A DNA stretch of 64,000 nucleotides from Amphiscolops sp. MND2022 (Eukaryota). Shown here piece by piece: positions 6,599 to 23,301 of the stretch (position 1 is the stretch's first letter; each line of letters starts with the position of its first letter). A program made the position numbers and the translations under genes. The stretch lies in NCBI GenBank assembly GCA_964187785.1, contig OZ076409.1, positions 21,826,001-21,890,000 on the forward strand, given 5' to 3'. The notes beneath the pieces were generated by a model, which made no database searches, was not told where the DNA came from, and saw only the letters and a list, made by a program, of their open reading frames with translations.

Positions 6599-6667
<69 letters not shown>
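5510..6667 (+). mobile_element. Internally deleted RTE-clade non-LTR retroposon with a (TGA)n tail
   Basis: RTE-type 5' UTR (GCCAGTCCCAAGCCCGGATAAAGGAGG..GGCGTCAGGAAGGACATCCGG). The ORF has KWKAAMERKGLKVSVKKTKGM, a PHD-like CGVC..CTACMCWVHKRC..FVCGSC, RPVLLYSCETW, LRLFGHVVR and, frameshifted, GRPKKTW. An 18-bp TSD at 5492..5509 / 23303..23320 has 1 mismatch. Confidence 0.85.
6599..6667 (+). repeat. (TGA)23 microsatellite, left border of the recombinase-element array
   Basis: Perfect trinucleotide repeat. Confidence 0.98.
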
Positions 6668-9600
6668 CCATTATAGACGCTGTGTATCGGCCCTCGATCA
6701 TTAGAGATTGTATGTACAGGGTCCCCATTTTCAGGTGCTTTTCCCTGGTTTTGTTACAAAAAATACCAAAGGATTATCGTCTTTTATGTTCGCCTATTCT
6801 AGTCAACTTAATTCTTGACCCACAGACGGAATCTGACGTTGCTACGACGCGTTTTAAGAGAAATTTGAGAGCCGTTTAAAAAACGGTGTAATCAGCTTGA
6901 AAGTGTAAAAAATGGAGACTCGGCGTACAAAATTTGTGAAAATGTAGTACTGTGTACAGCAAAATGAAAATCGGAGACTTCAAGTACGGTGCAAAAGTTG
7001 GTTGTATCAACAGTCCAACCATGGAATTAAAGACCGCCTAGGGAACGCATTCGCCACGTACAACGTCAGTTTCGTGATACTTTTCATTTAGAAACGATTA
7101 AGGTTTTGAGTAAAAAAAATCGAGACGCTGTGTACACGCTTAGAAAATCAGAGATCCTGTGTTAGCTCAAAAAAAGAACAAAATGGCCATGTTTTTTGAA
7201 TTATATCAACAAATACGAATACTTGAATATTGAAATGGATACAAAACAGTTCCGTATAAATAAATCAAAGTTGGAAACAAGTTTTGGTTGGGCGGAACAA
7301 ATGTTTTAAAGGTCCAAATGCTTGCAAATGTTGTGGTATTTGGAGTACACTTTGTTGAGTACTGCTTCCTGGTCCTGCAAATTCATTTTCATTGGCAGCA
7401 TGAGGTTCCGCATCTCTGTTTTGGACAGTTTACCATCGACTTTGCTCAGGAGATCAATAAGACGAATCATGCTCGCATGCAGTGGATCTCGTGGTTCCTT
7501 GAATGTTCGCATTCTTCTGGGCAACTCGTCAAGTTTGGATTCAGTCGACATTGTTGCTTTAGCATACCTTCCAGGAGCTTTTATAAATCGTGTCCTGGTC
7601 TTAACTGAACTGAGGGAAAATGTACTACAAGTTGACAACTCAGAATCTGAGTCTGGGTTGGCATTAACACTTCTCTGGGGGGCTGTATCCAAAGTTCCAA
7701 GAGTAACCTCGGACGCCGATGTATACAAAGGGTCTGTTGTATAGGCATCATCGTCTTCAATTGTCTTCGAACACGAAGGCTCGGGAACTTCTAGCTCGTG
7801 CTGAAGCCTTGGTGCATCAGTGGAGCCTGGTGATACCGGGATATCCATATGATCGTCTTCGATTTGATTTTCGGCACTGTACACGGCGTCTCTGATTATG
7901 TCACTCTGATGGGCAAGTAAGTCCTTTATTGCGTCTTCCTGCATCGGTGCGACGTAATGAGCTGCTGCTGTTTCATCGGTGTGTCCAGTGTTCGCCCGGA
8001 AAGCCCGGCGCATACCACTGGGAATCGCTCCGGCCTTGTTATGGACATAGGTTTCCCAACATTTCCTGAGGGAATTTGGGTTCAAAGAGAACTCCTGGGT
8101 TCCAAACAGTTTTTCGGTCGTTTTTTTCAAAGTGGCAGCCACATTACTGAATTGGGTACCACTCTTATTTGGGAAAAGCAAAACAGGGCAAGTGTTTTTT
8201 CCAGTTTCTTCCTTGTAGAGGGCATGACATCGGTCCACCAAGACTGCAATTTCTGGGGTTTTCTCAAAGAAATTCTCGAATTTGTCTCCAGTTTTGTGAT
8301 TTCGGGTTCTAATTACCTCCCCAACTTTTTTCCCGAGGAACTCGTTTGATGTACAGCTCAAAACCGCGCCAAGTCGACAATTTGAGTTCACCAGAATGCA
8401 AAAAATTGTCAATGAAGCCAGTTCAAGGTATGTCAAATCATCGGAGACGCCATGTACAATGTGTTTTTCGACTTCTTTTGCCAGTTTTGCCACCTGTTTG
8501 AGGGTTGGAACACGTTCGAACCGCTTTTCCTTTCTAAGTTTAATCTCCTGATTCCGACTTTTCTTCGTTCGCTTTTGATAATCGGTAATTTCGTCCAGAA
8601 TAGAGTTATATTGTACCCGTATTACTCGGGATCTGTGCCGTTGAAGCCATGTTATGAAGTCTTTTAGTGCAACAATGAGCTTTTTCATCGAATTGTGTGT
8701 ATAGCCATTCGTTTCTTTGTACTCCTTCAGCACTGTTGCTACTCTAGCAGTGTCACGAAAGTGATCACTCTTCGAGAACACTCCTTTATTGAAGTTTCTT
8801 TTGAACTGACTGATTTCTTGATCTTGGGATTCTCGAATTGAATTGCAATATTCCTCCAACAATTCTGCAGATTTAGGCCCTAAATCATTTCTTTCTGACA
8901 ACTCCCGTATCTGGGGTGGGAATTCTTCATCCGACTTCTTATTTCTGACCTTCAGGATGATGTGTCGAGGAAAATCATTATTGTGTCTCCTGGGATTCGT
9001 CATCCTCAAAGGGCAATTGACACACTGCGAAACTGGACCGCGGGCGTTTTTAGTAGAATCAAACGACATCAAGAACTTCCGGTACTCTGGTAGAAGGTTT
9101 CTTTGAACTTTGTCAAGGTGCTGTCCTATTTTTGCGACTTTCTTGCGGCAAATTGTACAGTCACGTACTGCTTCCTTTGATGTTTTTTTGTGAATTTTTC
9201 GCCGTTTGGAAGTCAAATTGGCCTGCCCATGGGTTGGTTCTTCTTCTAGAGGAACTTCAACCTGTGTAGATGTTGCCGCAGGAACATCAGCTGCGGGGGA
9301 GAGTTGTAGATTGAGATCTGAGATGGTATTCAGGTCAAAAGTTGACATTTCAGCTAGTTGTCGGTCGATCATTTCCGAGGTCTCATTCCCCAAAATACCA
9401 ATAACTGTTGGTTGTAAAGTCTCTTCTTCGCTCATGGTAATGTATTGGAACAATTATAACCAGAAAACAATTTTTCGTTCAAACTTTTAGACCGACTGAT
9501 CAGTAGGAAGCTGTAAGAGAAAATGGCACCTGTCTTTAATTCAAAAAGTGTACACAGCGTCTCTGAAATAGAAAAAGACTCAAAATTTTCACACCTGCCA

Positions 9601-9986
9601 ATAGTAGTTGACTCAAAGTAACTGTACACGTTCGCACGTGCTAGCACTTCCTTTGAGGAGAAAATTAGAAGTAGACGCTGAAGAAAAGCTGTGACTTTGG
9701 TCAAAAGTGTTGTTGTACAATGAGTCTCCGATTAGTCCAAAATTATACAAGTAGTCTAGGATCTTCAAAATGGCATTTTTTGAGATTTGATAGGAACCGC
9801 CTGTTTTTTTGCTTGTGGAATTCCATTAAAATTTGTAATTTATTGGCGGGATCGAAAGTAGGGAGTTCGAAAAAAAACTTAATAAATTTTCCGTGAGATT
9901 TCTGGTACATAGGGTTTTGGGTGATTTGGAGACTCAGTGTAGACTCCCGAGATACTTTAGGACTATGATGGATCTCCGATGATCAT
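6664..9986 (-). mobile_element. Tyrosine-recombinase (Crypton-like) DNA element, family A, copy A1
   Basis: 3.3-kb unit bounded by (TGA)n on both sides, with a near-identical copy at 16638..19925, a single YR ORF, weak TIRs and subterminal GAGAC-N5-GTAC motifs. Confidence 0.85.
7306..9453 (-). CDS. Zinc-finger/tyrosine recombinase, family A (715 aa from the TTG start; likely ATG start a few codons later at MSEEE), intact
   Basis: YR catalytic order R (NSNCRLG), K (NHKTG), xxxR (PNSLRK), H..Y (TGHTDETAAAHY); N-terminal CTIC..HLDK and CVNC..RRH..H motifs. Confidence 0.85.
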   Translation of the reverse strand: MFQYITMSEEETLQPTVIGILGNETSEMIDRQLAEMSTFDLNTISDLNLQLSPAADVPAATSTQVEVPLEEEPTHGQANLTSKRRKIHKKTSKEAVRDCTICRKKVAKIGQHLDKVQRNLLPEYRKFLMSFDSTKNARGPVSQCVNCPLRMTNPRRHNNDFPRHIILKVRNKKSDEEFPPQIRELSERNDLGPKSAELLEEYCNSIRESQDQEISQFKRNFNKGVFSKSDHFRDTARVATVLKEYKETNGYTHNSMKKLIVALKDFITWLQRHRSRVIRVQYNSILDEITDYQKRTKKSRNQEIKLRKEKRFERVPTLKQVAKLAKEVEKHIVHGVSDDLTYLELASLTIFCILVNSNCRLGAVLSCTSNEFLGKKVGEVIRTRNHKTGDKFENFFEKTPEIAVLVDRCHALYKEETGKNTCPVLLFPNKSGTQFSNVAATLKKTTEKLFGTQEFSLNPNSLRKCWETYVHNKAGAIPSGMRRAFRANTGHTDETAAAHYVAPMQEDAIKDLLAHQSDIIRDAVYSAENQIEDDHMDIPVSPGSTDAPRLQHELEVPEPSCSKTIEDDDAYTTDPLYTSASEVTLGTLDTAPQRSVNANPDSDSELSTCSTFSLSSVKTRTRFIKAPGRYAKATMSTESKLDELPRRMRTFKEPRDPLHASMIRLIDLLSKVDGKLSKTEMRNLMLPMKMNLQDQEAVLNKVYSKYHNICKHLDL

Positions 9987-10000
9987 GATGATGATGATGA
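9985..10000 (+). repeat. (ATG)5 spacer between A1 and B1
   Basis: Direct reading. Confidence 0.9.
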
Positions 10001-23000: not shown

Positions 23001-23270
23001 AGAGTGGTAAAAACGCAATTATGTATGCGTGTACATAGCGTCTCCAATGTTTCGAAAATTGCGAAGTGTTTGAATTGGGGCCGAAAAATTCTGAGCGAGG
23101 TTTATGCTCGAATGGGCCTCAACTAAAGGCTCAAAAAGTGTCGAGTTCCAAAGTTTACTCTGTGAGCTAAAATATCAGAAAGACTATGGGTACTCCGTTG
23201 TTTTTGACACACAGAGACCCTATGTACGATTTTGGAAAAGTGCTGGAGTACACAGGGTCTTTAATCGTCC

Positions 23271-23271
<1 letters not shown>
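20017..23271 (-). mobile_element. Family B element, copy B3
   Basis: Same TIRs; intact ORF. Confidence 0.88.
20624..22768 (-). CDS. Zinc-finger/tyrosine recombinase, family B (714 aa), intact
   Basis: DNNCRLG, EHKTG, PNIIRK, TGHSEATADRHY; CTIC..HLDKMH and CVNC..RRH..H; acidic S/T linker; basic helical C-terminal ~75 aa shared with family A. Confidence 0.87.
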   Translation of the reverse strand: MSSSNQIPTGLDASTIDAMDQLGEQTQQMLDQEIQKMQQNETSFPPELNLDLSLLSNESPMETTQTEPTPGPSNEPRTTPKKGRKPKKKVTQGSKFDFRVCTICQTKVKKIGQHLDKMHPELEDVHRKFLMSFYRTQNARITVFQCVNCPLRLTNKRRHLQEFPGHIILTVKNKQSPAEFPPELTMLSETTSLGFKSSQILEEFDEYYVSTLGTEIRQFHRRFVKKVFQDTNQLKNLKDLGGITRTYRESNNYTHSSMQKLLPTLKMFVKWMRRHKTRSHKVSYSTIFEEISAYEERNKVAGRKESKARQKSRFEGLPSMEELAKLAETIRKRLVHGVSNDFTYLDLASLSIFLVLIDNNCRLGTVLKTTTEDYDKVEVGAIIRSHEHKTGHVYENFFEKTEETNALISKCHELFTKETGLREPKLLFPNKQGREMTTASANFNSALSKHFETPNFKVGPNIIRKVWETHIRDNASKIPEELQRAFRSNTGHSEATADRHYVAPLEDSAIRAVLKRQREIIRDAMYTSFSADSVEAEVDPSRCTDEPSTSAPKTTSSSTNQVDEASQSEQEEETPGDDTTADSVTLGTHTTSAEREDPMSDTESIASSMGTTMSLASLGTPRSRRNKLQIGGNLSECERWAEMIKRLQNFRGAEDPLRPTMKRVIAIISKERHRLTKNEMRELMKPLRITSREQEAVLEKLYKKYHNLCMKLNL

Positions 23272-23301
<30 letters not shown>
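23271..23301 (+). repeat. (TGA)10, right border of the array, immediately followed by the RTE TSD
   Basis: Direct reading; TTTGATGTTTCGGGGACA at 23303..23320. Confidence 0.95.

Follow-up and report, generated by a model that had tools for sequence, protein, structure and literature searches.

Probable microsatellite-specific tyrosine-recombinase transposons stacked head to tail in a (TGA)n tract of the Amphiscolops genome

Target-specific DNA transposons are rare in eukaryotes. The subject of this study is a 64,000-nucleotide window of the 1.07 Gb genome of Amphiscolops sp. MND2022 (assembly GCA_964187785.1, contig OZ076409.1, here contig C1, positions 21,826,001–21,890,000), in which six perfect TGA tracts delimit five head-to-tail units of 3251–3321 bp, in the order A-B-B-A-B, each with its gene for a predicted tyrosine recombinase (YR) on the minus strand. 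The array opens with a (TGA)23 tract (6599–6667 of the window; all six tracts are given on the plus strand) that extends the 3′ end of an RTE-like long interspersed nuclear element (LINE). Next come unit A1 (6665–9985; 3321 bp including its terminal repeats), with an intact open reading frame (ORF; 7306–9435) of 709 amino acids (aa), a (TGA)5 junction (9986–10000), unit B1 (10001–13252), a (TGA)20 junction (13253–13312), unit B2 (13313–16563), a (TGA)26 junction (16564–16641), unit A2 (16639–19924; intact ORF 17281–19374, 697 aa), a (TGA)31 junction (19925–20017), unit B3 (20018–23270; intact ORF 20624–22768, 714 aa) and a closing (TGA)10 tract (23271–23300). The ORFs of B1 and B2 carry frameshifts: compared with B3, B1 has one base fewer in a run of T residues near 12420, a loss that could be an assembly error, and B2 has two bases fewer near 14464. 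No further tract of four or more TGA repeats occurs in the window beyond these six, and no (TCA)4 or longer tract was found there.

An earlier, sequence-only reading of this locus had described five ~3.3-kb units from two diverged families, all in one orientation and three of them with intact ORFs (A1, A2 and B3), and the tracts, ORFs and substitution counts agree with that description. The B copies are 15–28 substitutions apart over 3253 bp and A1 differs from A2 by 119, with DNA likeness between A and B limited to a blastn match of ~87 bp at ~80% and a protein identity of 42%. The same reading held that every one of the six junctions is pure (TGA)n, which they are, with the amendment that one TGA of the tract before each A is part of A's left terminal repeat. 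It had also given each unit one ~700-aa YR ORF and no reverse transcriptase (RT), DDE transposase, polymerase or capsid; among the window's ORFs of at least 120 aa, indeed none of these four types lies inside the units. Between A1 and A2 the proportion of nonsynonymous differences (pN) is 0.021 and that of synonymous differences (pS) 0.057, and the low pN relative to pS points to selection on the protein.

The B units are bounded by imperfect terminal inverted repeats (TIRs) of ~23 bp. In B3 the left one (GGACGATTAGAGACTCTATGTTC; 20018–20040, plus strand) and the right one (23248–23270, minus strand), which matches the left at 19 of 23 bases, both abut the tract. A shows the same pattern once one TGA is assigned to its left end, its right terminal repeat being the GATGATCA found just ahead of the tract that follows each A. 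A 13-bp motif, AGAYnCYnTGKAC, begins 11 bases inside three of the four ends and also recurs within the ORFs: one internal copy in B3 (21191–21203, minus strand) falls in the codons for IIRDAMY and a second (21754–21766, plus strand), inverted to the first, in those for HGVSND. In both A and B, two such inverted copies flank the region encoding the catalytic domain, and their DNA is near-identical between the families despite a synonymous divergence (pS) of 0.76. The 13-bp motifs may be arm-type sites for the zinc fingers of the recombinase. More unclassified termini adjoin TGA tracts at other loci (L003, L035, L058, L066, L068, L077, L080 and L104), several with an AGAC-like motif, which suggests that further families occupy the TGA niche.

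The A1 protein is predicted to consist of two C2H2-like zinc fingers, placed N-terminal to the recombinase core, followed by a core-binding domain, a tyrosine-recombinase catalytic domain, an acidic linker and a C-terminal helical domain. None of the three intact proteins (A1, A2 and B3) has a significant match in Pfam, and a profile search of PDB sequences returned no YR, just weak zinc-finger matches. Among 1.84 billion representative proteins 98 relatives were found; 20 relative clusters were looked up, and their sources are ENA, Logan or JGI, never NCBI or UniRef, with names no better than 'hypothetical protein'. When 37 aligned relatives were compared with Pfam, two matched Phage_integrase and five Phage_int_SAM_1, all weakly. 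A search for longer proteins, covering 1865–5000 aa, metagenome scans with P0033 and P0024, and a weak two-pattern scan of viral contigs each found no relative. A first full-length structure model was poor (pLDDT 51). That of the core (B3 residues 178–530, from a 64-sequence alignment) reached a pLDDT of 93.3 and a pTM of 0.85, and in a VIA-align search with it the top 13 rows were all of the tyrosine-recombinase fold, including XerA, an integron integrase and lambda Int; the best match was XerH (Z 12.3, root mean square deviation 4.5, 271 residues aligned), with Tn1549 Int at Z 11.2 and Cre at Z 10.9. Foldseek likewise retrieves this fold. The recombinase assignment first made from motifs has thus passed a structure search, and on the model's evidence the protein core is a tyrosine recombinase with core-binding and catalytic fold. 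The conserved motifs NCR362, HK389TG, N461xxR464K, GH492 and Y501 (B3 numbering) yield, by motif and conservation, a putative catalytic set of R362, K389, N461 (at the H position), R464, H492 and Y501; R362 and K389 are invariant across the 37 relatives and R464 is present in 90% or more. At least 15 A and 7 B copies among the matches listed retain full-length open frames.

The genome holds ~40 matches to B and ~199 candidates for A. We sampled 120 ends (30 for each type of end, starting from the best matches, with 8 from the window): 116 adjoin at least four TGA repeats in the same phase and the other four adjoin one or two. Counted genome-wide, TGATGA directly precedes 173 of 176 exact A-left ends, whilst B-left ends matched with a pattern admitting either TGA or TCA gave TGA in 29 cases out of 29 and TCA in none. 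The first 100 A ends listed represent at least 30 separate insertion sites; 90 of these ends group into 20 clusters of several copies, and strands are not mixed in any of 30 clusters. Young copies, 0.2–0.5% apart, conform to the TGA-tract rule too. Copies elsewhere are therefore flanked by (TGA)n and lie in one orientation, in keeping with the earlier proposal that (GAT/ATC)n is an orientation-specific attachment site. Four further arrays contain 23, 12, 9 and 5 units, several large contigs carry arrays with a different unit order, and other arrays include a third family of ~26–30% identity; in the five arrays, 20 of 54 units are internally deleted A copies of 2.4 kb. Array edges lead into diverse degenerate host repeats. 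The shortest junction measures 6 bp, and both flanks are TGA repeats, masking any terminal direct repeat or duplication. The five arrays give 9.6 (TGA)15 matches per tract and the whole genome 5337, from which, assuming about 350 tracts, we roughly estimate that over half of the genome's long TGA tracts adjoin these elements.

Related YRs, with 35–40% identity in the core, sit in (TAA)n: a tract lies beside the unit at all 19 loci fetched and on both sides at 17 of them, some units are stacked, and there are two family-specific orientations. At L201–L220 and L224, no fewer than six families that target (TAA)n are stacked together, in two opposing orientations. Longer relatives have (TAG)n upstream at four of five loci, with both ends seen at one locus, and four of the five have an N-terminal SET domain. 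Fusions of SET, zinc fingers and YR, 1024–1254 aa long and adjoining (TAG)n, are seen at L221 (1864–5142), L222, L223, L226 and P0033. As a 15-mer class TAG has 144,376 genome matches versus the 5337 of TGA. In a midpoint-rooted tree the TAG-type proteins are separate, and the TGA and TAA families share one well-supported clade whose inner order is not resolved. One sister of B, whose cluster numbers 85 members, has no counterpart in this genome (best match 47–50%), so the lineage is abundant in one other assembly or more. A palindromic AT or TA recurs at three-base intervals in each of the three targets, a spacing that would suit a two-fold symmetric recombinase.

We are highly confident that this is a real, recently mobile and microsatellite-specific YR transposon system, and A and B are, very probably, autonomous Crypton-type DNA transposons that use (TGA/TCA)n as an attachment site of fixed orientation. 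In the mechanism we propose, the zinc fingers would bind the 13-bp motif as arm-type sites and the core-binding and catalytic domains would contact the outermost ~10 bp at either end, a stretch that is tract-like in sequence. The element would excise as a circle with TGA repeats at its junction and then recombine with a chromosomal tract. Since (ATG)n reads AT-N on both strands it would present a pseudo-symmetric core site, and an asymmetric overlap would set the orientation. Every insertion would leave target on both sides, making each array its own hot spot.

Several points weigh against this interpretation. No circle, empty allele, transcript or activity has been observed, circles and activity being inferred only. 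The Foldseek TM-scores are modest (0.3–0.5), and at the first position of the H-x-x-R motif A and B have N in place of H, with variation among the relatives. The count of the 13-bp motif (9 in A1 and 10 in B3, versus 0.3 for shuffled sequence and 3 for the 47 kb beyond the array) is partly circular, AGAYnCYnTGKAC having been derived from the same units, and the pseudo-symmetry rule is based on three targets only. There has also been some homology-driven exchange: a pair on C1289 and two pairs in C8 and C4 are mutually nearest relatives, and two A/B junctions in the array on contig C2 have the same deleted end and the same spacer of 2 repeats, though the units differ. In this C2 array, near 40.05 Mb (L129–L133), both odd junctions hold TGATGA only and a C replaces A's last base; they may mark the overlap length (6–8 bp) or a conversion patch.

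These signs of exchange, together with the fact that the tracts are direct repeats, speak for arrays produced by local tandem duplication, or by unequal crossing-over between TGA tracts after one founder, with the recombinase of little weight. Local duplication would, however, make neighbours nearest relatives, and mostly they are not. For 16 of the 18 B copies with an array sibling, the nearest relative lies outside their own array (two of the 30 B copies were left out, as their alignments fell short of 2800 bp), and for 50 units of the five arrays (leaving out 4 of the 54 that had no 90%-length partner) 16 nearest relatives lie in the same array when 13.7 are expected by chance, a distribution like that of genome-wide draws. 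The arrays therefore grew by separate insertions. Families just 26–42% alike in protein interleave within one tract, several having inserted independently into the same tracts, and the 30 or more separate sites among the first 100 A ends listed likewise argue against a single founder. We consider the duplication model largely refuted and leave it a slim chance; comparison of the copies indicates that the main process has mostly been repeated insertion from a genome-wide pool.

What the array was inserted into can be read from its borders. An 18-bp target-site duplication bounds the LINE and the array together, with its left copy at 5492–5509 and its right copy, which has one difference, at 23303–23320 (both plus strand); it has two matches in the window and none in 100 shuffles. 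The short LINE copy (5510–6598, plus strand), which we take to belong to the RTE clade, has an ORF (5613–6494) with a weak PHD/C1 match followed by an RT C-terminal-like tail. Because the duplication encloses both the LINE and the whole array, the array occupies the (GAT)n tail of one LINE insertion. The genome contains at least 40 3′ ends of this LINE family, and all 20 sister copies fetched, of 39 others listed, terminate in A(GAT)n. These 20 sisters read AAC-A-GATGAT and the window copy AAC-T-GATGAT, a change that could stem from slippage or strand exchange at the first insertion. A possible likeness of the LINE 5′ end to hepatitis delta virus-like ribozymes found no support, Rfam returning nothing over 5300–10100.

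This reconstruction bears on a further explanation, that the target preference is passive, either because elements insert widely and survive only in microsatellites or because they carry their own repeat tails as LINEs do. Repeat-carrying circles may occur and the tracts near elements are long (in a survey of junction tracts of 4 or more repeats), as such a model would have it, but the tract existed here beforehand as a LINE tail, array edges enter diverse degenerate host repeats, the young copies are also in TGA tracts and no RT is encoded; we think the explanation quite improbable. A little less probable still is that a larger integrating virus or YR retrotransposon provides the machinery and that the units are its satellites or its non-autonomous remnants. 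Endogenous nimaviruses lend this some plausibility, since they enter telomere repeats via a zinc-finger, SAM-like and YR protein (accessible text of PMC10871703), but at ~3.3 kb the units are complete and their two ends defined, they contain no RT, capsid or polymerase ORF and include the full-length open frames counted above, and the weak viral-contig search found no relative. An assembly artefact, which would fit the many copies with 1-base indels (possibly long-read errors) and had been named earlier as a possible undoing of the array, is the least likely of all, given units 15–119 substitutions apart with closer relatives on other contigs, differently ordered arrays on several large contigs and an 18-bp duplication that closes the structure around the LINE.

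The statement in the sequence-only reading that each integration leaves target repeats on both sides holds but is incomplete, for tract splitting alone hardly gives the repeat numbers seen. Sister LINE tails (n = 20) have a median of 5.5 repeats, with nine or fewer in 18 of 20 and a maximum of 29. The array in the window totals 115 TGA repeats, the mean junction is 18–25 in arrays of 5 to 23 units and the largest array, of 23 units, contains 607. With 115 repeats set against such short sister tails, the splitting of one tract cannot easily supply what is observed. Repeats seem to lengthen as elements stack, and the extra ones could be either circle-borne or regrown by slippage, whether or not the recombinase assists. 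Two free LINE tails attained 27–29 repeats without elements, and unit divergence shows no correlation with flanking tract length (rho 0.11, p 0.44, n = 50), which is consistent with carriage or with fast slippage. Rather tentatively, and with well under even confidence, we suggest a niche-building, TIR-bounded YR lineage in which each integration would add ~20 repeats (circle-carried or by recombinase-triggered slippage) and so turn a LINE tail into a multi-family stack of 17–70 kb; among its subfamilies a single recognition scheme would have been retuned to (ATG)n, (TAA)n and (TAG)n, and a SET domain would have been acquired on one branch.

Cryptons are DNA transposons that encode a YR only. 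The units resemble them in having a YR as sole transposase, with no RT or DDE, and in being dispersed multi-copy units with defined ends and non-autonomous derivatives, the 2.4-kb deleted A copies; the three intact proteins matched no Crypton-linked family in Pfam. The microsatellite-specific CryptonV group that had been named at the outset is in print: 'some families' of CryptonV are inserted specifically in microsatellites, according to the accessible text of PMC8869645, which cites Kapitonov and Jurka (2012, Repbase Reports 12:2034). The likeness, drawn by description and not by sequence, is that both are YR-encoding animal DNA transposons with microsatellite-specific insertion. In a language-model search the protein has unnamed chordate, cnidarian and arthropod clusters as its neighbours, at 0.92–0.97, a lead only, compatible with CryptonV kinship. 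The accessible parts of PMC4455052, PMC5753468, PMC3706591, PMC9004415 and PMC11162782 hold no description of CryptonV. CryptonA, CryptonI, CryptonF and CryptonS share with our units a single YR, the circle model and non-autonomous derivatives, and CryptonF and CryptonS use 4–6-bp direct repeats as recombination substrate (accessible sections of PMC3212892). Those sections describe Cryptons generally as without TIRs, and animal Cryptons as without terminal repeats and a C-terminal domain, whereas A and B have ~23-bp imperfect TIRs and differ from the four groups further in their repeated motif, conserved C-terminal helical domain and strict repeat target.

Compared by description, nimaviral YRs have the same order of C2H2, SAM-like and YR domains and the same habit of simple-repeat insertion; they sit in large viral genomes and target the telomere repeat (TAACC)n, with nimaviral reads crossing the repeat tract from one end to the other as concatemers or episomes would (accessible text of PMC10871703), in contrast to the single-gene 3.3-kb unit here. 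The YR fold is common also to Starship captains (DUF3435) and to prokaryotic Xer and Tn916-type integrases, from which the units differ in having no cargo, an animal-type host and 9–16% identity to solved YRs. Starships likewise show niche-specific insertion (accessible text of PMC11162782). DUF3435 clusters score 0.90–0.91 in the language-model search, and the family is not among the 25 of 32 Pfam families shown for the 37 relatives. A Starship was rejected on the size of 3.3 kb without cargo and on the lack of a DUF3435 match in the three intact proteins, and DIRS, Ngaro and VIPER retrotransposons were rejected on the lack of gag, RT/RNase H and long terminal repeats. In the papers searched, which took in neither Repbase nor most subscription journals, microsatellite-specific Cryptons figure only in a single line that cites a Repbase report, and nothing was found there on stacking, terminal repeats, a gain of repeats or an assay. 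The class is known; as a variant of it, this system is well exposed through its defined ends, its stacks of several families, its three target guilds and its apparent repeat gain.

Repeat-targeting elements being known already, what stands out is that related families in one genome are aimed at three different repeats. This genome supplies young intact copies, exact ends and three target classes among related proteins, so that the recognition code and the Crypton circle model become directly testable. As an orientation-specific integrase of one protein and 3.3 kb directed at a simple repeat, the element is also a candidate tool for integration and, if the repeat gain is element-driven, a route of microsatellite growth would be at hand.

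Around the array, RalGAP-beta-like coding stretches lie on the plus strand both upstream (3815–4387; 9qwp_B residues 58–188, E 2.8e-11) and downstream (27293–31279; 9qwp_B residues 546–942, E 6.3e-12), the latter in an open stretch of 1328 codons. With such stretches on both sides, the array is probably intronic in a RalGAP-beta gene. The LINE was inserted into a degraded retrotransposon-like coding fragment (23320–25400, minus strand), presumably with restriction-like endonuclease motifs, one short ORF of which has no match in Pfam. A BED zinc-finger ORF fragment at 59761–60330 (minus strand), with a weak Pfam match, is what we take to be a probable remnant of a hAT-type transposase. Tandem repeats of 236, 122 and 27 bp and a ~1-kb duplication at 81%, located at 1819–2520, 4529–4690 and 34496–37120, are unrelated to the array.

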